DNA of 37,926 bases, taken from Planctomycetaceae bacterium (GTDB taxonomy: Bacteria > Planctomycetota > Planctomycetia > Pirellulales > UBA1268). The position numbers and the translations under genes were made by a program. Below, piece by piece: positions 9,183-34,620 of this stretch (positions within the stretch are counted from its first letter, which is position 1; every line of letters starts with the position of its first letter). The notes below the pieces were generated by a model that saw only the letters and a list, made by a program, of their open reading frames with translations, had not been told where the DNA came from and ran no database searches. The stretch is from positions 1-37,926 of the forward strand of contig JBJTJO010000123.1 in the NCBI GenBank assembly GCA_046095965.1, given 5' to 3'.

Positions 9183-9261
9183 TCCATAGCGCCGGCGGGC
9201 TGATCCCCGGCCGGGGCCCATGTATGATGGAACGGCATTCGCCGGGGTCGCGGAGTCGCCC

Positions 9262-9981
9262 ATGATCGAGCCTCACGGTCAGCGGAAACGGAGCCTCCTC
9301 CGCGTCGCGGTGGCGGTCGCACTGGTCGGTGCGGGGGTCGGCCGGGCCGCCGATCCGCCCGCGATCGGCGGCGGCCTGGTGCCGACGCCGCGGAAGACCC
9401 GCGAGGAGCGCGTGCGCGAGTGGGACCTGAACTCCGACGGCAAGATCGACCAGGGCGAGGCCGAAGTCGCGTCGTCGCGCATGCGGCGGGAGCGCGCGGA
9501 GTTGCGGCTGAACTCCGGCATCGATCCGTTGACGGGCCTGCCGCGAGGCGAGTCGCTGATCTTCACGGATCCCGGCGACGCCGACCTGGCCGTCGAGCCG
9601 GTCGTGCCCGAGGACGAGCCGGCCGATGAGCCCGAACCCGACGAGCGGCCCGCGCTTCCGCGCACCCGCGTCCCCCGGTCCACGCTCCCCGATCCCGGTG
9701 GCGCGGCGGCCAAACCCAAGACCGGTGGTTCCAGGGCCGCCGCGGACCTCAAGCGGCAGCCGATGACGGGCGGCGTGAAGGCCGGCGGCCTGCCGGCCCG
9801 CGCCGGCTACGGGACCGGCGTGCCGGCCGCGCCGCTCAATGCGGGACTGCCCATCCCGCCGAAGTCGCGGGCGGCCGCCGTGCCGCCCGCGGCGGCCCGC
9901 GGTGGCCTCGTGCCGACGCCCCGCGCGGCGGCACCCGCGCCGCGGCCGGCCCGGTCGCGCGACATGTACGACCCCTACTGA
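9262..9981 (+). CDS. secreted Pro/Ala-rich protein with one canonical EF-hand loop
   Basis: Uses the inner ATG at 9262. The signal peptide is RKRSLLRVAVAVALVGAGVGRA. DLNSDGKIDQGE (9424..9459) fits the 12-residue EF-hand loop at positions 1, 3, 5, 9 and 12. The remainder is low complexity. The motif GGLVPTPR occurs near both ends. Confidence 0.6.
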   Translation: MIEPHGQRKRSLLRVAVAVALVGAGVGRAADPPAIGGGLVPTPRKTREERVREWDLNSDGKIDQGEAEVASSRMRRERAELRLNSGIDPLTGLPRGESLIFTDPGDADLAVEPVVPEDEPADEPEPDERPALPRTRVPRSTLPDPGGAAAKPKTGGSRAAADLKRQPMTGGVKAGGLPARAGYGTGVPAAPLNAGLPIPPKSRAAAVPPAAARGGLVPTPRAAAPAPRPARSRDMYDPY

Positions 9982-10016: not shown

Positions 10017-12575
10017 ATGCCTTCACCACGCTCACGGGCCATCCGTTTCATTCTCGTGCGGCCGTTCGTCGCGGCCATGCTCGTCTGCGTCGCGCCGGGC
10101 GCGGACGCCGAGGGTCCGGCCCTGCCCGACGCCACGGCCCACGAGAGCGTGCTCGTCTCGGGCGTGGTCGATTCGTTCGCGGCGACCCGCGCCGCGGTGG
10201 CCCGCGCGCGGGAGACCAGCGGCCGCGACTACCGCGTGGTCGTGGTCGATTCGGCCGGCGATGCCGGCGATGCCCGAGGCCTGCTTGACCGCCTCACGGC
10301 CCGCTGGCGGACGCAGGCGGAGGGGGCATTCGACCCCGCGACCGACGCCACGATCGTCCTGGCCGTGAACGAGCGCAAACTGGCGATGGATGTGCCCTGG
10401 GCCCTCGAGGCGGCCGCGGGGCTCGACGTGCCGACGCTCGAGCAGGAACTGATCGCGAACACGTTCGTGCCCCGCGCGCGGGACGGCCTCCTCGACGAGG
10501 GGCTCGCGGCGCTCGTCGATGGCACCGAGCGGTGGGTGCGCGAGCGGGCCGACGAGAAGCTCGCCCGCGCGGAGGCGGACCGCGTGTTCCGTACGCGAAC
10601 ACTGCCGCTGGGCCTCGCCGCGGCGGCCGGAACCGCGGCCCTCGTGTTCCTCGCCGCCCGGCGGGTGCGGCACGCGCGGCGGCTCGCCGCGGCCCGGGCG
10701 AAGCTCGCGGCCTTCAAGGCCGACGTGGTGGCGCTCTCCGACATGCTCGACGCGCAACAGGAGCGGCACCGGATGCTGCCGCACGCCGACCCCGACTTCA
10801 CGACGCCGATGGAGGGGCTCACGCGGTCCGCCTACGACGGCGTCCAGGAGGCGATCGCCCGCTACCGCGAGCGGTGGCTCGGGCTCATGGATGTGTGGGA
10901 GCGCGCCCAGGCGAAGGTCGATTCGGAGTGGTTCCTGGGCACCGCCGCGGCCGACGAGGCGGTCAGACTCCTCGAGTCCGCCGAGGCGCGGCCGCCGCTC
11001 GACGAGGTCGCCGGCGCCTGCCGCGGTCCGCTCGACGCCCTCGAGACGGCCCACGAGGAGGCCCGAGCGCTCCGCGACTCGGTTGCCGCCGACGCGGCGG
11101 CCGTGACGGCTCGCGTCGAGGGGCTGGCCCACCGCGGTCGCTCGGGCGCACCCTACCAGGCGCGGCTCAACGCCACCGCCCGCGGCAGCGCGCGGGCGGT
11201 CGCCGTCCTCGAGCACGACCCGGTGGCGGCCCGCGGCACCCTCGAGGAGGCCGCGGCCACCCTGGCGGCCGCGCGCGAGCACGTCGAGGGGGTCGAGGCC
11301 GGCGACGACCGGCGGCAGCGGGCCCTGGCCCAGGCAGACGGCGTCGCGGCCCAGGTCGCCGCCCGCCGCGCGGAGGGCTGGTTGCTCACCGAGCCGGGCG
11401 CCGACCCCGATGACCGACTCGCCGCCGCGCGTCACGAGTGCGGCCTGGCTGCACAGCTCCTCGACGCCGGCGACGTCCCCGCCGCGACGGCGAGCGTCGA
11501 GCGGGCCGAGCAGGCGAGTGCCGCCGCGGCCGCGCTCCTCGAGAGCATCATCGCGGCCCGCGCGCGGGTGGAGGAGCTCCTGCCCCCCGCGGCCGCGCGG
11601 CTCGATGCCCTCGCGGCCGGCCGCGCCGCCGCCGCGGCCGCGACCGCGCACCTCGAACGGACGTACGCGGAGAGCAGTTGGTCCGACGTCGCCGACAACG
11701 TGGCCCGGATCGACGAGGGCCTCGCACGAACCAAGGCACTCCTGCTCGAGGCCCGGGCGGCGGGCGAGCCGGCGCGACAGCACTACTTTCGCGGCGTGGC
11801 GCTCGTGGAGGAGGCGGGTCGGCAGGAGGACTGGGTGTCCGGGTGCCAGGACGCCCTCGCCGAGCGCCGCGCGCGGCTCGACGAGCTCCGGACCTCCTTG
11901 CCGGTCCACCGCGACGCGGTGGCCGGCCGCGTCGTGGAGCTCGCGCGGCAACTCGACCGGCAGCGGACCGACCGGGCCCGCGCCAACGAACGTTGCCGGG
12001 AGGCTGCGCGGCTGCTCGAGACGGCCGACGCCGGGCTGGCCGCGCCGCAGCCCGAGCTGCTCCAGGCGGAGAAGCTCGTCGCGGCGGCGGACGCGGCGGC
12101 GGCACGCGGGGCCGACCTCGCCGCGGAGGACGACCGGCTCGCCCAGCAGGCGGTCCGGGAGATCGAGGAGAGTGGCGCCGTCGTGCGGCGCGCCGCGGCG
12201 TGGTACGGGGAGGGCGTGCAGGCCGACCTGCGGGCCGCCCGGCAGATGCTCGACACGGCCGAGGCGCAGCTCGGCCGGCAGCGCTACGAGGATGCGATCA
12301 AGACCGCCGGCGAGGCCACGCTCACCGCACAGGCCGCCTACGCGACCGCGACCGCCGAGGCCGAGCGCCGCCGCATCCGCCGGCAGCAGGAGATCCAGCG
12401 GCGGCGGATGGAGGACTCGTTCGCCAGGTCGGCCGGCGGAGCCGGACCGTGGGTGATCACGCTCCCCGGGGGGCGCTACAGCGGCCCGGATCCCTGGCGA
12501 TCGGTGACCCAGTCGGCGCCGCCGCGCTCCGCCGGCACGAGCTGGTCCCGTGACATCGCGCAGGTGGGCTGGTAA
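10017..12575 (+). CDS. TPM-like domain, single TM helix and long alpha-helical (EzrA/spectrin-repeat-like) membrane protein, 852 aa
   Basis: The ATG at 10017 is followed by the signal sequence AIRFILVRPFVAAMLVCVAPGADA. The exported domain (YRVVVVDSAGD, TIVLAVNERKLAMDVPWALEAAAGL, FVPRARDGLLDEGLAALV) resembles the TPM (TLP18.3/Psb32/MOLO-1) pattern. The TM helix LPLGLAAAAGTAALVFLAA is followed by RRVRHARR. About 620 aa of Ala/Arg/Glu-rich helical sequence follow. GC3 bias is strong, and the 1242-aa antisense ORF is a shadow. Confidence 0.7.
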   Translation: MPSPRSRAIRFILVRPFVAAMLVCVAPGADAEGPALPDATAHESVLVSGVVDSFAATRAAVARARETSGRDYRVVVVDSAGDAGDARGLLDRLTARWRTQAEGAFDPATDATIVLAVNERKLAMDVPWALEAAAGLDVPTLEQELIANTFVPRARDGLLDEGLAALVDGTERWVRERADEKLARAEADRVFRTRTLPLGLAAAAGTAALVFLAARRVRHARRLAAARAKLAAFKADVVALSDMLDAQQERHRMLPHADPDFTTPMEGLTRSAYDGVQEAIARYRERWLGLMDVWERAQAKVDSEWFLGTAAADEAVRLLESAEARPPLDEVAGACRGPLDALETAHEEARALRDSVAADAAAVTARVEGLAHRGRSGAPYQARLNATARGSARAVAVLEHDPVAARGTLEEAAATLAAAREHVEGVEAGDDRRQRALAQADGVAAQVAARRAEGWLLTEPGADPDDRLAAARHECGLAAQLLDAGDVPAATASVERAEQASAAAAALLESIIAARARVEELLPPAAARLDALAAGRAAAAAATAHLERTYAESSWSDVADNVARIDEGLARTKALLLEARAAGEPARQHYFRGVALVEEAGRQEDWVSGCQDALAERRARLDELRTSLPVHRDAVAGRVVELARQLDRQRTDRARANERCREAARLLETADAGLAAPQPELLQAEKLVAAADAAAARGADLAAEDDRLAQQAVREIEESGAVVRRAAAWYGEGVQADLRAARQMLDTAEAQLGRQRYEDAIKTAGEATLTAQAAYATATAEAERRRIRRQQEIQRRRMEDSFARSAGGAGPWVITLPGGRYSGPDPWRSVTQSAPPRSAGTSWSRDIAQVGW

Positions 12576-12737: not shown

Positions 12738-13934
12738 ATGCTCGCTCGCCACGCCTTCAGGGCCTTCCTCGCGCTCGTCGTCGCCACCGCGGTCGCGACC
12801 TCCGCCAGCGCGGACACCGACCTGCCGCCCACCGCCGACACGGCCTTCACGGAGGGCGACGGCGAAGATGCCGTGCCGGCACCCGAGCCTGCGGAGCCGG
12901 TGTCGCGGGCCGAGGCCGAGGCGCCGGCGGTCGTGCCCGCGCGGCCGGCGGCGACGGCGAAGCCGGCCGCAGTCCGCCGCGGTGCGGCGGCCGCGGGCGA
13001 GACCGCCAAGAAGACGCCGGCGAAGCCGGTCCTCGTGCCCGGAACGGGGTCGCTCGTGAAGGGCGGGGGCGACGACTTCGAGGATCCCAACTGGCAGTGG
13101 TACTACAACCATCCGAAGAGCTCGGAGGAGATGGACAAGAAGACCCGCGCGCCGATGGGCCGCAGCCGCGACGGCAGCTGGTTCGAGGGCCCGAAGCGCG
13201 GCACGCCCGACGTCGTCAAGCGGATCGAACTGCCGGCGCCCGGGCTCGAGGGGAGCGCGCACGGCATGCTCTTCTCCACCCGCCAGGCCGGCATCCCGAA
13301 CCGGCTCACGGGGCAGATGCAGCAGGACGACCTCGTCTTCAACCTGACGCGGGCCACCGGCGGCCAGGGCATCACCGTGGCGGACAGCCCGAGCGTCGTC
13401 GTCCGCGTCTACCTGCCCCCGTTCGAGCAGTGGGAGAAGCGGACCGGCCCCTCGTTCGGCTTCCGGGCGGGCTGCTACACCCACGCGACCATCACCGCCG
13501 ACGACCATCCCCGGGAGGGCAAGTGGGGCCTCGAGGAGTACTGGCCCGGCATGTTCATCTGCTTCGAGAGCGGCCAGGACGGCCGCCACAAGCAGGACGC
13601 GGCGTACCTGCGGATCCGCGGCGGACGCAATGGCGGCGAGATCATGGGGCCGCGGATCACCGAGCTCGGCTGGTGGACCCTGGGGCTCTCCTTCTCGCCC
13701 GACGGAATGGTGCACTACTTCGCCAGCCCGGGAGTGGACCCGCTGACGATGGACGACCACATCACGTCGCAGTTCCCCTACGGCTACCGCACCGAGTGGT
13801 TCAAGACCTACTTCTTCAACGTCTGTGCCCGGGACGACGGCAAGACCTGGAGCACGCCGTGGGTCGTGGACGACCCGAAGGTCTACTTCGTCAGGCGGTC
13901 CGAGATGGCGACGACGCCGTCGCGGAAGCGGTGA
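12738..13934 (+). CDS. secreted hypothetical protein (398 aa)
   Basis: The ATG at 12738 has AGGGGA 8 nt upstream. The signal peptide is MLARHAFRAFLALVVATAVATSASA. An Ala/Pro-rich linker is followed by a Trp/Tyr/Gly-rich, probably beta-rich domain (DPNWQWYYNHP, YWPGMFICFESG, GWWTLGLSFSPDGMVHYF, WSTPWVVDDPKVYF). I recognise no family. Confidence 0.65.
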   Translation: MLARHAFRAFLALVVATAVATSASADTDLPPTADTAFTEGDGEDAVPAPEPAEPVSRAEAEAPAVVPARPAATAKPAAVRRGAAAAGETAKKTPAKPVLVPGTGSLVKGGGDDFEDPNWQWYYNHPKSSEEMDKKTRAPMGRSRDGSWFEGPKRGTPDVVKRIELPAPGLEGSAHGMLFSTRQAGIPNRLTGQMQQDDLVFNLTRATGGQGITVADSPSVVVRVYLPPFEQWEKRTGPSFGFRAGCYTHATITADDHPREGKWGLEEYWPGMFICFESGQDGRHKQDAAYLRIRGGRNGGEIMGPRITELGWWTLGLSFSPDGMVHYFASPGVDPLTMDDHITSQFPYGYRTEWFKTYFFNVCARDDGKTWSTPWVVDDPKVYFVRRSEMATTPSRKR

Positions 13935-18950: not shown

Positions 18951-20198
18951 CTACCAGCTGGCCTCGAGGCCGAGCGACGCGCCGTGCAGGAAGACGGTGT
19001 CCTTGGCGACACCCGTGCCGCTCGTCACCGAGTCGTTCGTGAAGTCCCACTGGCTCGCGGCCGGGGCCACGCCCGTCAGCCAGAGGAGCGTGTAGCCCGC
19101 ACGCACGCCCCAGTGGTCGCCGAGGCGGCGGACGATGGTGGCGTTCAAGTCGCCGATCATGCCCACGCCCATGGTCGAGGCCTTGCGCGGGTCTCGGATC
19201 TGTTCGAGGTCGGCGGGCGCGAGGATGGCGCTCTGCGCCTGCGACAGGACGCTGGCCATGAGGCCCGCCTTCGCCCAGCCCTCGACGGCCCAAGGGCCCC
19301 ACTCGATCCGCCGGCGGTGCCCGATCTGCGGGCCGAAGAGCTGCGACGACGTCGTCACGCGGTACGAGGTCGTATTGGACACTGGGGCCGGGGGCGGCGG
19401 AGTTGACCACGCCGTTACCTCGAGGTTCGCCGACTCGTCGAGGTACGCATAGCGGAGGCCGACGAGCCACTCCGCCGTCGGCACCATGCCGACCCGCCGC
19501 CACGGCAGCGGGTCGTGGCGCTGGCAGCCGTCGTGCGTGCGGGTGGTGAACAGGTTGCACTCGGCGGAGTTGAGCGTGGAGTTGAGCACCGGCCGGATGG
19601 CCGTCGCGGAACCGAATCCGGTATGTGTCTCCGTGTCGATGCCGAGCACGCCGGGTACCGCGAGGTCGCCGGCCGGCGAGACCGCGAGCGCCTCGGCATG
19701 CATGCCCGACACCCCGAGGTAGCCCACCTCGAAGCCCAGGCAGTCCCGCTTCCGCCAGGTCTGGAAGATCCGCCCGCCGGGACTCATCGGATACCGGACG
19801 TTGCCGGACCCGATCACCGTCGCGCCGGGGGTGTCGGTGAACGCACCGGAGACCGCGAGCGGGCCCACGCTGTTCTCGCGGTCGATGAACAGGGCATCGA
19901 CGGTCGTGAAGGTCTCCCATGCGGCGGGCGCGCACGGCTGGCACGTCACGCCACCGCCAGGCCGGAACGCGACACTCGCCTCGGGCATCTCCTCGACCAC
20001 GAAGGCGTCCGCGACCGGTGGCGGCTGCGCCGGCCCGGCATCCGTGGCACTTCCGTCCGTCGGGATCACGACCGGTGCGGCCGCCTCGTCGCCGCCCTCG
20101 CCGATCACGATCGGAACGGCATCGGGGCCGGCCCGGGCGCCGCTCGGCGCAGCGACGGCCCCGCACATCCACGCCGCGATCAGCACCCTCGTCAGCAT
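18951..20198 (-). CDS. putative outer-membrane beta-barrel protein (BBP7/DUF1551-like)
   Basis: Uses the inner ATG at 20198. The signal peptide is MLTRVLIAAWMCGAVAAPSGARA. Alternating beta-strand-like segments (LGFEVGYLGV, WLVGLRYAYLDE, WGVRAGYTLLWL) end in the aromatic terminus GLEASW, which is typical of OM barrels. The family assignment comes from overall resemblance only. Confidence 0.6.
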   Translation of the reverse strand: MLTRVLIAAWMCGAVAAPSGARAGPDAVPIVIGEGGDEAAAPVVIPTDGSATDAGPAQPPPVADAFVVEEMPEASVAFRPGGGVTCQPCAPAAWETFTTVDALFIDRENSVGPLAVSGAFTDTPGATVIGSGNVRYPMSPGGRIFQTWRKRDCLGFEVGYLGVSGMHAEALAVSPAGDLAVPGVLGIDTETHTGFGSATAIRPVLNSTLNSAECNLFTTRTHDGCQRHDPLPWRRVGMVPTAEWLVGLRYAYLDESANLEVTAWSTPPPPAPVSNTTSYRVTTSSQLFGPQIGHRRRIEWGPWAVEGWAKAGLMASVLSQAQSAILAPADLEQIRDPRKASTMGVGMIGDLNATIVRRLGDHWGVRAGYTLLWLTGVAPAASQWDFTNDSVTSGTGVAKDTVFLHGASLGLEASW

Positions 20199-20372
20199 CG
20201 CGCTTCCCCAACGGTCCCCGGGAGAAAGCCGTTCCTGGCCTTGCTCCACCGCGACGACCGGTACGGTCCCTACGACAGGAGCGATCGGTATCCGGGGCAG
20301 GGTCCTTGAGAATCGTCACGGTCGCCTTCCCGGCGGCGACAGGCGGGGCAAGCTGGGCGAGCGGGGCTGGCA

Positions 20373-30721: not shown

Positions 30722-31960
30722 TCAGCGGCCCACGTCGAGGCAGATGAGCGTCGCGTCGTCGCGGAGGTAGAGGCGGCCGCCCGCGAGGGCGGGCAGGGCC
30801 CGCACCGTGCCGGAAAGCGGCCTGCACCGCGCGAGCACCTCGAGCCGCTTGGGGTCGGGCCGGACGAGGAGCACCTCGCCGTCGGTCTTCGCCACCACGA
30901 GCTTGCCGTCGGCGACGACGAGCGTGCCGTACGCGTCGAGCCGCTCGCGCCAGGCTTCGCGCCCGGTCGCCGCCTCCACGCAGACGAACTCCGCCGGCGG
31001 CACGTCGTCGCGGCCGTCCAAGCAATAGAGATGGTCTCCCACGAGCACCGGCGTGCAGTACTGGCTGGCGAGCGGGCCCTCGCCCTGCCAGGCGGGCTTC
31101 GCGGCCGCCCGGTCGAAGGCGGCGCAGACGCAGCCGATCCCGTAGGCGCTCGTGACGAGGACGCGGTCTCCGCCGATCACGACGGGCGACGCCCCATTGA
31201 CCGTCGGCCCCCGCTGGCCGAAGGGAAACTGCCAGGCCACGTCGCCCGTGACCGGATCGAGAAGCAGGCACGAGAGCCGGGTGACCATGAGCACGTGCGG
31301 CCGACCGGCGACCTCGAGAGCCACCGGCGCCGAGTAGCTCGCCGCCTCGGCCGTGCGCTGCCAGAGCGTGGCCCCCGTGTCGAGCGCGCAGGCGACGATG
31401 CCGGCGTCGCCCCGGCCGCCGACGTTCACGATCACGCGATCGCCCATGACGAGCGGCGTGGAGCCCGCGCCGAAGTAGCCCTCCGGCGCCGCGAACTCGC
31501 GGTGGGTCTCCCGCGACCAGCGTCGCGTGCCGGTCGCGAGATCGTGCGCCGCGAGCACGCCCTGGGCGCCGAACGTGATCACGGTGCCCGCGTGGACGAC
31601 CGGCGTGCAGAGCGGCCCGTCCCCACCGCCGACCTGCGGCCGGAACCGCGTCGGCTGGTCCGCCTGCCACAGGGTCTTGCCCGTCGCCGCGTCGAGCGCC
31701 TCGACGATCTCGCGGTCGCCCTCGCGGTGGAAGAGGATCGCCCGCCCGCCGACCACCGCCACGCCCGCGTACCCCGCGCCGACCGGCCGCTTCCAGATCA
31801 CCGCCGGGCCGGCGGCCGGCCAGGTGTCGGCGAGTTGCTCGTCGGCCGCCGCGGCGCCGGTCCGCGCGGGCCCGAGGATCTGCGGCCAGTCACCGCCGCG
31901 GACGGCCGCCGCCGTGAGGGCGACCCAGAGCCACGCCGCCCCGGCCGCGCGGTTCGTCAT
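30722..31960 (-). CDS. secreted PQQ-like (BamB-type) beta-propeller repeat protein
   Basis: Uses the inner ATG at 31960 (last 412 codons of ORF 30722..33391). The signal peptide is AAWLWVALTAAAV. Repeated blocks of the form ...ALDAATGKTLWQ, AHDLATGTRRWS, ALDTGATLWQ, LLDPVTGDVAWQ, VEAATGREAWR are typical of PQQ-like propeller blades. An ATGA overlap joins it to the kinase gene. Confidence 0.8.
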   Translation of the reverse strand: MTNRAAGAAWLWVALTAAAVRGGDWPQILGPARTGAAAADEQLADTWPAAGPAVIWKRPVGAGYAGVAVVGGRAILFHREGDREIVEALDAATGKTLWQADQPTRFRPQVGGGDGPLCTPVVHAGTVITFGAQGVLAAHDLATGTRRWSRETHREFAAPEGYFGAGSTPLVMGDRVIVNVGGRGDAGIVACALDTGATLWQRTAEAASYSAPVALEVAGRPHVLMVTRLSCLLLDPVTGDVAWQFPFGQRGPTVNGASPVVIGGDRVLVTSAYGIGCVCAAFDRAAAKPAWQGEGPLASQYCTPVLVGDHLYCLDGRDDVPPAEFVCVEAATGREAWRERLDAYGTLVVADGKLVVAKTDGEVLLVRPDPKRLEVLARCRPLSGTVRALPALAGGRLYLRDDATLICLDVGR

Positions 31961-33678
31961 GTCGCCTGTCCGCGCTGGCGGAAATACTTGTAGCCCGGCA
32001 CCATGAAGCAGACGGCGCTCACGAGGCCGAAGATCACGTGCTGCCACGCGGGCACGAGGCACATGACGAGCGCCGTGGCGAAGAGCACCGCCGCCTGGAT
32101 GTAGAAGGCCCCGGAGAGGATGCCGGCCTTGGCGAGGAACACCGTGCCCGCCAGGAGCGCGAGCACCGGCGAGAGCGTGAGCACCGGCAACCCCAGGAGC
32201 GCCTCGACGCCGAACAGGAGCACGCTCGCCACCACGCTCGCGCCCCAGACGTGGGCCACCTGCCGCTCGACGGCCGTGACCGGCCCGGTGCGATGCCGCA
32301 GCGCCCAGAAGATCGGCGCCCAGAGCGCGAGGCCGCCGCCCCAGAGCACGAGGTAGGGCCAGCGCTCCGCGACCCCCTGCCAGGCGAGCACGTCGGTCGT
32401 CACGCACAGGCCGAGGATCACGACCGAGTGCCACATCCAGAGCAGGCCCCAGTTCTCGAGCACGACGGCGTGGTGCGTCTCGCGGAAGAGTCGCGCGACC
32501 ACGTCCCCGAGGCCACCGCGGCGGGCGGCGACCGGCTCGCCGGCGAGGAACGCGCGGAGGTCGGCCGCGAGCGCCGCGGCCGAGGCGTAGCGGAGGTCGG
32601 CCGGCTTCTGCAGGCTCTTCAGCGCGATGAGCTCGAGGTCGCGATCCACGCCGGGGGCGAGCGACCGCGGCAGCGGCGGGTCGCTCTCGAGCACCGCGAG
32701 GAGCGTGTCCATGGCGCCGCCGGCCTGAAAGGGCGGCCGGCCGGTGAGCATCTGGTAGAGGATCGCGCCCAGGCTCCAGACGTCGCTCGCCGGGCCGACG
32801 TCGCCGCGGCTGCCGGCCGCCTGCTCGGGCGACATGTAACAGGGCGTTCCGAGGATGGCGCCGGTGTGCGTGACGGACATCTCGTCCTCGAGCCGCTTGG
32901 CGAGGCCGAAGTCGGAGACCCGCGGCGCGCCCGTCGCGTCGATGAGGATGTTGGAGGGCTTCAAATCCCGGTGGAGCACGCCGCGGTCGTGGGCGGCCTG
33001 CACCGCGTCGGCGACCTGCGCCAGGAGCCCGGCTGCCTCCCGCGGCGGCAGCGGACCGGCGGCCAGCCGCTTCGACAGCGTCGTCCCCTCGACGAGCTGC
33101 ATGCTGTAGAAGGGGTGGCCGTCGTGCTCGCCGACCTCGAAGATCGACACGATCCCGGCGTGGTCGAGGCGGGCCGCGGCCTCGGCCTCGCTGCGGAAGC
33201 GGGCGAGGTCGGCCGGCGTGGCGAGGTCGCGGCGGAGGAGCATCTTCACGGCCACCGTGCGGCCGAGGCTCTTCTGGGTCGCGCGGTAGACGACGCCCAT
33301 GCCGCCCCGGCCGATCTCCTCGACGAGCTCGTAGTCGCCGAACGCGAGGGGGAGCGGGGCGGACCCCGGCACGAAGCCGCCGCCCCCCCACGAGTCCGCG
33401 ACCGGCCCGACCGCCACCGGTCCGGAGCGGTGATCACCGGCCGCGACCAGGATCGTGGACCGCTCCGCGACGGCGTCGGCCACCGACATCGCGGCGAACA
33501 CCTCGCGCAGTTCGCCGGCGAGGTCGGGATGATCGCCCGCGAGCCGCTCGAGCGCGGCCTGCGCCGCCGGACCGCGGATCTCCGAGAGCGATTCCACGAG
33601 CGCCGCCAGCCGCTCCTCGCGGTCGGGCTCGAGCGGCGCGGTGCCGGCCGGCGGCCGGGTGATCGTCGGTGGGGTCAT
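31957..33678 (-). CDS. Ser/Thr protein kinase with a C-terminal 6-TM domain
   Basis: IGRGGMGVVYRA, AVKML, HRDLKPSNILI, SDFGLAK and GTPCYMSPEQ form a Hanks-type catalytic core. Six hydrophobic helices follow (LLWMWHSVVILGLCV ... VIFGLVSAVCFMVPG). Confidence 0.9.
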   Translation of the reverse strand: MTPPTITRPPAGTAPLEPDREERLAALVESLSEIRGPAAQAALERLAGDHPDLAGELREVFAAMSVADAVAERSTILVAAGDHRSGPVAVGPVADSWGGGGFVPGSAPLPLAFGDYELVEEIGRGGMGVVYRATQKSLGRTVAVKMLLRRDLATPADLARFRSEAEAAARLDHAGIVSIFEVGEHDGHPFYSMQLVEGTTLSKRLAAGPLPPREAAGLLAQVADAVQAAHDRGVLHRDLKPSNILIDATGAPRVSDFGLAKRLEDEMSVTHTGAILGTPCYMSPEQAAGSRGDVGPASDVWSLGAILYQMLTGRPPFQAGGAMDTLLAVLESDPPLPRSLAPGVDRDLELIALKSLQKPADLRYASAAALAADLRAFLAGEPVAARRGGLGDVVARLFRETHHAVVLENWGLLWMWHSVVILGLCVTTDVLAWQGVAERWPYLVLWGGGLALWAPIFWALRHRTGPVTAVERQVAHVWGASVVASVLLFGVEALLGLPVLTLSPVLALLAGTVFLAKAGILSGAFYIQAAVLFATALVMCLVPAWQHVIFGLVSAVCFMVPGYKYFRQRGQAT

Positions 33679-33736
33679 GGCACGTGTTCTGGCGGTGGAC
33701 GCAGCAGCATGCTAGGCGCCGCGCCGGCGGCGGACA

Positions 33737-34381
33737 TCACGCCTCCGGCTGGAGCAGGCTCCGCAGCCGGCGCATGGCCCGCAGGTAGCGCATCCCGGCC
33801 GCGGGCGTGGAGATCCCCAGGGCGTCCGCCGCCTCGGCGGTGGACAGGTGCTCGAAGTGCTTGAGGAGCACGATCCGCCGGTCGGGTTCGTCGAGCGCAT
33901 CGACGGCGGCGGCGAACCGCCGTTCGAGTTCGTGCCAGGTCGCGGCGGCGGCCGGGGTGAGTTCGCGGTCGGTCAGATCGGCCGCCGGGCCGGCCCGGGA
34001 GTCGTCGGAGTCGGCGCCGCCGAGCGGCACCTCGCGGTCGAGGCTGCGGACGCCCGCCACGCGATGCCGCCGGTGGGCGTCGATGAGCCGGTCGCGGGCC
34101 ATGTGCCGCAGCCACAGTCCGAACGGCATCGTGGGGTTGGCGAGGTAGTCGCGGAGCCGCCGGTTGGCCTCGACGAGCACGTCCTGGACGATGTCGCTCG
34201 CATCGACCCGGCGCTGCACAACGCGGTCCATCCGGCGGTCGATGAGCCGCCGGATGGCGTCGCGGTGGCGGGCCAGGAGGCGGTCGATGGCGGAGCCGTC
34301 GCCACGCCGCACCTGGTCCAAGAGGGCCACCGTCGGGGACGGATCCCCGGCGCCGCGTCCGGGGTCGGCGGTGCTGGTCAT
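33737..34381 (-). CDS. ECF-type RNA polymerase sigma-70 family factor
   Basis: Uses the inner ATG at 34381 (codon 56 of ORF 33737..34546). Region 2 is DASDIVQDVLVEANRRL ... FGLWLRHMARDRLIDAHR. Region 4 is LDEPDRRIVLLKHFEHLSTAEAADALGISTPAAGMRYLRAMRRL. No anti-sigma gene is adjacent; the next gene, 58 nt downstream, is the kinase. Confidence 0.85.
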   Translation of the reverse strand: MTSTADPGRGAGDPSPTVALLDQVRRGDGSAIDRLLARHRDAIRRLIDRRMDRVVQRRVDASDIVQDVLVEANRRLRDYLANPTMPFGLWLRHMARDRLIDAHRRHRVAGVRSLDREVPLGGADSDDSRAGPAADLTDRELTPAAAATWHELERRFAAAVDALDEPDRRIVLLKHFEHLSTAEAADALGISTPAAGMRYLRAMRRLRSLLQPEA

Positions 34382-34480
34382 GGGGTCGGATTGGCCGGTG
34401 GTGCGAGACCTCCATCGTACCAACGTGTCGCCCCGGCGCGGTGGTGACGGTCGGGGTGGGATTTTCGACGGCGCCCGGGC

Positions 34481-34510
34481 CACGGCCAAAAATTTTCGCG
34501 TTTCCTCACG
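34481..34510 (-). promoter_or_regulatory. candidate ECF-type promoter (minus strand: TGAGGAAAC-N15-CGTG) about 100 nt upstream of the sigma gene
   Basis: The minus strand reads cgTGAGGAAACgcgaaaatttttggcCGTG. An AAC...CGT pair at about this spacing resembles ECF promoters, and the spacer is unusually AT-rich for this genome. The resemblance is weak. Confidence 0.2.
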
Positions 34511-34620
34511 CGCCGGCGTTTTGCCCGCGCGCCCGGCGTGATCCATAATCGACGGCGGTCATCGGACGGACCGCTGTCGCCGCGACAGGACGCGGCCCCC
34601 CCGGCGATCGGATCGCTCCA

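Follow-up and report, generated by a model that had tools for sequence, protein, structure and literature searches.

The window analysed here is a 37,926-nt stretch of DNA from a Planctomycetaceae bacterium (contig JBJTJO010000123.1, forward strand). A gene with an ATG start at positions 10017 to 12575 of its forward strand encodes a protein of 852 amino acids (aa), the target of this study, in which an exported TPM domain and a single transmembrane (TM) helix are followed by a long helical domain, hereafter the rod, with similarity to the cytoplasmic part of EzrA. The window has a GC content of about 74% and carries long open reading frames (ORFs) in every frame, as high-GC windows do, including one of 1242 aa that overlaps the target gene on the opposite strand. 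The 852-aa product might accordingly be a chance ORF, an Ala/Arg-rich low-complexity translation with no gene behind it. However, the coding signature of the genome is confined to the target frame, where GC fractions at codon positions 1, 2 and 3 are 0.83, 0.59 and 0.90, and the 1242-aa ORF was set aside as a high-GC artefact. Because the third-position value is accompanied by hundreds of full-length homologues, the target ORF is a genuine conserved gene. With a confident structure model in addition, the chance-ORF explanation is refuted and its probability is practically nil.

Of the candidates scored, 421 qualified as homologues at E≤1e-3. The best 120 of these 421 are 839-887 aa long and 58-79% identical to the query, with coverage of 95-100%. 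In an alignment of 31 homologues, mean column identity was 70% and conservation was position-specific over the whole length. The names attached to these sequences ("hypothetical protein", "TPM domain-containing protein" or "YgcG") assign no function to the family. An NCBIfam scan of the target protein returned noise only (SMC, 5.6 bits), and neither Pfam nor NCBIfam holds a curated family covering the rod.

The N-terminal 31 residues (10017-10109) have the features of a signal peptide: an Arg-rich n-region, a hydrophobic core at residues 8-26 and a cleavage-type motif (A-D-A↓E). Hydropathy reaches its maximum (2.11) over the core, just after several Arg residues. Across the 31 homologues A31 never varies, and the consensus at this site reads "ADE". 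In the AlphaFold model, the TPM domain is separated from the membrane by a stalk helix (residues 159-193; 10491-10595), predicted to be periplasmic, which terminates in a conserved FRTRTLPLG sequence. A second hydrophobic segment (residues 196-214; 10602-10658; hydropathy 1.96) corresponds to the single TM helix, and the positively charged patch RRVRHARR follows immediately (residues 215-222; 10659-10682). The 21 residues that follow the TM helix carry a net charge of +8, the 15 that precede it one of +3. Because of this patch and of the charge asymmetry, the protein is predicted to have its N-terminus, with the TPM domain, outside and its C-terminus in the cytoplasm, the calls being made from hydropathy and the positive-inside rule. 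The model further shows an unbroken helix running from the TM segment into the cytoplasmic domain (residues 203-252). The signal peptide, the lone TM helix and the basic patch had all been proposed in a first-pass annotation of the window and were all recovered here.

The exported TPM domain occupies approximately residues 40-175 (10134-10541) and includes a conserved GRDYRVVVVD segment (residues 69-78). Residues 57-171 align to positions 16-123 of the 125-position Pfam profile TPM_phosphatase (PF04536) with 22.8 bits (E=9.9e-5), a marginal match in that the gathering threshold is 22.1 bits. The same profile is matched by 27 of the 31 homologues, with E-values as low as 4.7e-7, and distant relatives reach 35 bits. 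A full-length AlphaFold2 model (mean predicted local distance difference test score, pLDDT, 84.3) was searched with Foldseek. Its TPM part superimposed on BA41 (5anp) with E=5.4e-4, a target TM-score of 0.75 and a root-mean-square deviation (rmsd) of 3.0 Å. Other matches were 2kw7 (PG_0361), 3pvh (TLP18.3), 8c7i (Psb32), 2kpt (cg2496), 4oa3 (BA42) and 8ovc (AscF, a mycobacterial supercomplex subunit), with Foldseek probabilities of 0.99-1.00 for solved TPM domains. The identity of the domain, already suspected from its pattern in the first-pass annotation, is confirmed at the levels of sequence and modelled fold.

TPM domains are described as working from the outer side of the membrane when membrane complexes are assembled or repaired (PMC11237479, PMC13456599). 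The activity of the TPM proteins characterised so far varies, some binding metals or nucleotides or having phosphatase activity (PMC13456599). Such properties, combined with a receptor-like layout (exported domain, one TM helix, long helical cytoplasmic part), are those that a transmembrane sensor might have: a small ligand such as a nucleotide, phosphate or metal would be recognised by the TPM domain, and the rod would relay the signal to a cytoplasmic effector. However, Pfam and NCBIfam searches revealed no HAMP, MCP-signal, kinase, GGDEF or other output domain, and no response regulator or kinase gene is consistently adjacent in the contexts examined. Moreover, family members that lack the TPM domain retain the rod. 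We consider a sensor function highly improbable.

The rod (residues 223-805; 10683-12431) has a high content of Ala, Arg, Glu and Leu. Modelled separately (residues 222-812), it folds with a mean pLDDT of 90.2 into long helices of 37-63 residues alternating with short ones of 11-31, a pattern that continues up to residue 805. The helical character assigned to this region in the first-pass annotation is borne out by the model, which is at odds with disordered low complexity. The rod is also the best-conserved part of the family and contains invariant loop motifs. Foremost among these is ERHRMLPHxDPDFxTPMxGxT…RYRERWLxLMDVW (residues 249-294; 10761-10898), which forms a loop plus a helix just beneath the membrane and in which H251, G267 and T269 are invariant in an alignment of 37 diverse family members. 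The first-pass annotation had also pointed to recurring blocks in the rod. The three blocks that it quoted are indeed present, at residues 481-499, 548-569 and 753-767, but they are not sequence repeats: pairwise profile comparison of seven rod segments gave a best probability of 27 and a best score of 23, neither significant. The repetition is structural only and consists in the alternation of long and short helices.

EzrA, the septation ring formation regulator of Firmicutes, is a cell-division scaffold with a spectrin-like cytoplasmic domain. Anchored in the membrane as an arch, it binds cytoskeletal and cell-wall-synthesis proteins near the membrane; its TM helix extends into the first of a series of triple-helical bundles of about 100 aa, which are connected through long unbroken helices and together curve into a semicircle (PMC4243239). 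Target and EzrA have in common a single TM helix that leads straight into a cytoplasmic part of about 60 kDa. The helix pattern of the model would also suit consecutive antiparallel helical bundles with long linking helices, as in EzrA. The two differ in that the target carries the exported TPM domain and stalk before the TM helix and a Trp-ended tail after the rod, and in repeat number, about six repeats (some 590 aa) being predicted for the target rod versus five plus a four-helix bundle (some 540 aa) in EzrA. Linear arrays of antiparallel helical bundles are likewise found in the rods of spectrin, alpha-actinin, vinculin and talin. Foldseek did return vinculin and talin, at probabilities of 0.04-0.35 and with rmsd values above 45 Å, and these matches were rejected: unlike the EzrA match described below, they involve no real superposition, nor is there any sequence signal between these proteins and the target rod.

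Sequence similarity between the rod and EzrA was assessed by profile-profile comparison. The Bacillus subtilis EzrA sequence was verified against PDB entry 4UXV, and an alignment of 25 EzrA homologues gave profile A3. On the family side, profile A2 comprised 37 diverse members and profile A5 was built without the window's own clade. When A2 was compared to A3 with hhalign, a single alignment of 505 collinear columns was obtained (score 44.6, E=3e-4, probability 40%), spanning residues 219-760 of the target and residues 12-528 of the 545-residue crystallised EzrA construct. Controls yielded short alignments, with scores of about 20 for both reversed profiles and of 17 to 27.5 for 20 block-shuffled EzrA profiles. 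Profile A5 reproduced the same collinear alignment over 481 columns (score 34.9), as against 21.0±2.7 (maximum 27.4) in 30 shuffles. The similarity is thus above chance and below the level usually taken as proof. It emerges only once diverse family members join the profile.

Several motifs fall in register in these comparisons. The family PM-E-G-L-T sequence (PM-x-G-x-T) is paired by hhalign with the invariant M-T-G-Q-T of EzrA (NMTGQT), and the family R-E-R-W (RYRERW) with the invariant W-R-E-E-W (KWREEW). Two further pairs are AEGWLL with E-x-G-Y-x-L (common form E-G-[WY]-x-L) and QRYEDAI…A-x-E-A with Y-x-Y-x-x-A-L-E-x-A-A (common form Y-E-x-A-[IL]). The Pfam EzrA profile (PF06160) is matched at E≤0.1 by 18 of the 31 close homologues (best E=5.4e-6), and the matches are collinear, with protein residues of about 340-620 falling onto profile positions of about 117-400. 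Weak signals for the same profile were also seen in distant members, by scanning in P0129 and in precomputed annotations for P0121 and P0397. At the structural level, the highest Foldseek probability for the rod-only model (0.93) was obtained with a two-repeat fragment of Staphylococcus aureus EzrA (4UY3), the only helical match in which the two structures physically superimpose (target TM-score 0.60, rmsd 6.3 Å over 217 columns).

A number of results weigh against reading the protein as a TPM domain joined to an EzrA relative. The target protein itself does not match the Pfam EzrA model; thus, of the two Pfam searches suggested in the first-pass annotation, the one for TPM_phosphatase succeeded and the one for EzrA did not. 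The PF06160 scores of its homologues (19.6-25.4 bits) all lie below the gathering threshold of 39.6 bits. Probabilities in hhalign comparisons to EzrA were only 10-40%, and a profile restricted to the narrow clade scored a non-significant 18.8. An EzrA hidden Markov model built from Bacillaceae alone performed weakly, scoring at least 10 bits in 12 of 237 family members and in one reversed sequence, with maxima of 20.3 bits in real versus 13.8 bits in reversed sequences. Neither the single protein nor the clade profile retrieved EzrA 4UXV in PDB sequence searches, the sole match being to a de novo designed protein (E=0.18). The Foldseek E-value for 4UY3 is 1.2, and full-length EzrA 4UXV was not returned for the rod model. 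The FtsZ-related QNR patch of EzrA (B. subtilis residues 505-511) is not conserved in the family: IQ(Y/F)GNR(Y/F)RS of EzrA aligns opposite RRAAAWYGEGVQAD in the target, where Q-N-R is not maintained. To these points must be added that no conserved gene partner was found across the classes of the family, as detailed below, and that the scaffold role proposed further on has analogy as its entire basis.

On balance, fold-level and topological similarity of the rod to EzrA appears very likely, and true remote homology probable. The EzrA resemblance, drawn in the first-pass annotation from sequence texture, is therefore supported as a remote similarity: collinear sub-threshold Pfam matches, profile-profile scores above controls and the 4UY3 superposition speak for it, whereas the Pfam threshold was not reached and the QNR patch is missing. 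The data support the view that the rod is a remote relative of EzrA and do not establish it as an EzrA family member in the sense of Pfam or of FtsZ-related features. In short, the architecture is solid and the EzrA homology moderately supported.

When 1.84 billion representatives (clustered at 50% identity) were searched exhaustively with a profile, this identified 503 family members at E≤1e-3, including 144 at E≤1e-30; a word-indexed search with a distant profile gave 8 proteins. Three architectures were distinguished. The first, to which the target belongs, consists of signal peptide, TPM domain, TM helix and rod in about 850-980 aa. The second has the same elements in 1100-1260 aa, the TPM domain being separated from the TM helix by a periplasmic coiled coil of about 250 additional residues; in examples such as P0128, P0143 and P0152, the TPM head is placed much further from the inner membrane. 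The third is limited to an N-terminal TM helix and the rod (620-660 aa; for example P0164, P0174, P0187 and P0198), which is the exact layout of EzrA (562 aa). Named homologues come from metagenome-assembled genomes (MAGs) labelled Planctomycetota, Planctomycetia, Pirellulales or Planctomycetaceae, many of them from lakes. A few bear the labels "Candidatus Kuenenia", Planctomicrobium or "Chitinophagaceae", the last at least being probably a binning or labelling error. One MAG, JBEIQP01, contains two loci (L024 and L031) with full-length members, both 59% identical to the query, which may be paralogues or reflect a mixed bin.

A peculiarity of the target is its C-terminal tail (residues 806-852; 12432-12572), GAGPWVITLPGG…GPDPWR…SRDIAQVGW, which ends in a Trp residue. 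Its conserved sequence reads GAGPWVIxLPGG…GPDPWR…SRDIAQVGW. All 31 homologues retain this tail, with W852 invariant, and it is modelled at low confidence (pLDDT below 50 for residues 826-852). Among the representatives, a terminal Trp is found in every one of the 64 that have a TPM domain and a complete rod, usually as …SQxSW (…AQVGW in the target), and is absent in 19 of the 26 that have no detectable TPM domain. Of the other seven, several are N-terminally truncated, as indicated by the start positions of the matches, and the rest may be too. Escherichia coli YgcG, a canonical TPM protein, also terminates in Trp (…GGGGSSGGGGASGRW, GGGGASGRW). From the strict association between cytoplasmic tail and periplasmic TPM domain one may suspect that YgcG-type proteins have two ends that cooperate across the membrane; no such cooperation was described in the literature searched.

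Like the target, YgcG-type proteins (PF04536; COG1512), among them E. coli YgcG, B. subtilis YdjH, Psb32/TLP18.3 and BA41/BA42, combine a signal peptide, an exported TPM fold, a membrane anchor and a Trp-ended tail. The distant TPM-bearing relatives of the target in fact end in Gly/Ser-rich …SQxSW sequences, while the tail of the window's clade is not Gly/Ser-rich throughout. Typical YgcG-type members, on the other hand, pass from the TM helix straight to the Gly-rich tail, and the target differs from them also in its marginal TPM score and in the lack of a pspA or lemA neighbour in any context examined. Because the TPM head and the Trp-ended tail are as in YgcG, the simplest reading of the origin of the target is a YgcG-type TPM protein in which an EzrA-like domain would have been inserted after the TM helix and before the tail. 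One could go further and regard the target as an ordinary YgcG/YdjH-type protein, engaged in complex assembly or maintenance or in envelope stress, whose helices would be a spacer or an oligomerising coiled coil resembling EzrA by convergence. Head and tail would fit this explanation equally, as would the failure of every EzrA score to reach threshold and of the search for internal sequence repeats. However, a mere spacer would not be expected to be the best-conserved region of the family, with invariant loop motifs, nor to occur alone, free of TPM domain and tail, in the 620-660-aa proteins. The alignment to EzrA moreover is collinear from end to end and survives the reversal and shuffling controls as well as the change of profile, and the missing pspA or lemA neighbour again sets the target apart. 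We thus hold this explanation to be rather unlikely, though the most credible of the alternatives to an EzrA-like rod with a scaffold role.

The first-pass annotation had described the fusion as an unusual architecture. No paper combining TPM with EzrA, or TPM with Planctomycetes, was found in the literature searched, and searches for EzrA with Planctomycetes, for planctomycete budding with coiled coil and for EzrA homologues revealed no planctomycete relative of EzrA. Length as such is not exceptional in a TPM protein. Among actinobacterial TPM membrane proteins, Rv2345 is, we assume, about 660 aa long. Like the target, Rv2345 and Cg2496 are predicted transmembrane proteins whose TPM domain is exported, and the N-terminal domain structure of Cg2496 (2KPT) matches the TPM model of the target. 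In YdjH-type proteins, a TPM domain is described together with a long coiled coil (PMC11237479). An early proposal made Rv2345 and Cg2496 ZipA-like (PMC3989709), a division role that was never validated, and Rv2345 is reported as an acid phosphatase in work cited in PMC13456599.

The surroundings of the gene were compared among related loci. Within the clade, gene order is maintained over more than 10 kb: ribBA, SBP_bac_5, the gene for a 253-aa protein, the target gene, the gene for a 398-aa protein, SnoaL and SASA. This synteny reflects relatedness, not necessarily function, and is uninformative. The 253-aa protein is encoded on the forward strand (9220-9981), 36 nt upstream of the target gene, and combines a hydrophobic N-terminal segment with an EF-hand-like loop (DLNSDGKIDQGE) and an extended Pro/Ala-rich tail; no family match was found in a domain scan. 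It is present upstream in 40 of 80 related loci, in most of which the alignment is limited to a short stretch of about 50 residues. On the downstream side, at a distance of about 160 nt from the target gene, positions 12738-13934 of the same strand encode the 398-aa protein, which is exported and had no match in Pfam, NCBIfam or PDB searches. This protein occurs downstream in 65 of the 80 related loci with 60-86% identity (67-86% for full-length matches), a conservation equal to or slightly above that of the target.

In distant members, the immediately upstream genes compared are mutually unrelated, encoding EF-hand-like proteins, PD40-type beta-propeller repeats or a leucine-rich repeat (LRR) protein with a coiled coil, and no recurring Pfam family was found among the remaining neighbours. 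An operon-partner model was therefore rejected, there being no conserved partner across the family classes, and the target gene behaves as a stand-alone unit, whose surroundings offer no hint of function. In two loci with TPM-less members, L082 (169-4154) and L087 (3940-8914), the gene lies downstream of one for a conserved 280-aa protein made of LRRs and a Lys/Ala-rich coiled coil, with a 182-aa gene intervening in L087. The LRR protein gene is divergent from an mlaE gene in both loci, and in L087 this mlaE gene is part of a cluster of MlaE, ATP-binding cassette ATPase and MlaD genes. Genes with PG_binding_1 and Peptidase_S11 domains lie just downstream of the family member in L087. Elsewhere in the window, both on the reverse strand, are a gene for a BBP7 beta-barrel porin (18951-20249) and a Ser/Thr protein kinase gene adjoining one for a PF07638-type extracytoplasmic function (ECF) sigma factor (31957-34546). 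We take BBP7 porins and PF07638 ECF sigma factors to be typical of planctomycetes, in agreement with the phylum to which the window is assigned, and SBP_bac_10, which adjoins one distant member, to be a family expanded in this group.

EzrA localises to the Z-ring, where it binds and regulates FtsZ, its defining partner; to our knowledge, Planctomycetota lack ftsZ. For this reason, the partners of the rod could not include FtsZ. A conceivable alternative is that the protein is a dedicated part of an FtsZ-independent division or budding machinery, where an EzrA descendant would organise another cytoskeletal or peptidoglycan-synthesis partner. The topology, remote homology and fold-level similarity in common with EzrA would suit such a role, as would the breadth of the family, with 503 representatives and every named match counted as a planctomycete MAG. 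The TPM-less member in L087 adjoins the PG_binding_1 and Peptidase_S11 genes, the latter of the D-Ala-D-Ala carboxypeptidase type, and TPM membrane proteins of actinobacteria have in the past been singled out as candidates for a division role (PMC3989709). Yet the FtsZ-related QNR patch is not conserved, and no division or cell-wall gene is consistently linked to the family in the contexts examined. A dedicated division role appears improbable, if somewhat less so than a sensor function. Equally improbable is its more specific form, in which the rod family, with or without TPM, would be the planctomycete counterpart of EzrA, an arch organising FtsZ-independent division or budding, with the TPM head and Trp tail coupling it to periplasmic peptidoglycan or envelope remodelling.

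The explanation that best accounts for the data as a whole, to which we assign about an even chance, is that of a bitopic inner-membrane protein of an uncultured, high-GC planctomycete, combining a TPM domain with an EzrA-like rod and serving, by analogy, as a scaffold that links periplasm and cytoplasm. In the predicted architecture, a cleavable signal peptide exports the TPM domain, which sits on the short periplasmic helical stalk, and the one TM helix continues into the cytoplasmic rod of some 590 residues, modelled as a series of antiparallel helical bundles. Held at the membrane as EzrA is, the rod would offer the conserved motifs of its loops to partners in the cytoplasm or close to the membrane. 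On the other side, the TPM domain may act on a component of an envelope or membrane complex by binding or maturing it, or possibly by dephosphorylating it, in line with proposals for other TPM proteins. Membrane or envelope organisation would probably be the process served, whether in growth, budding or complex assembly. A scaffold function is, by this analogy, the most likely one.

EzrA is known from work on Firmicutes, where it partners FtsZ. The data presented here describe a large family in planctomycetes with the same topology and a rod that is probably a remote relative. If the homology holds, EzrA-type membrane arches would be older and more versatile than thought, and able to work without FtsZ. 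This family constitutes a concrete, conserved candidate for the study of planctomycete cell biology.

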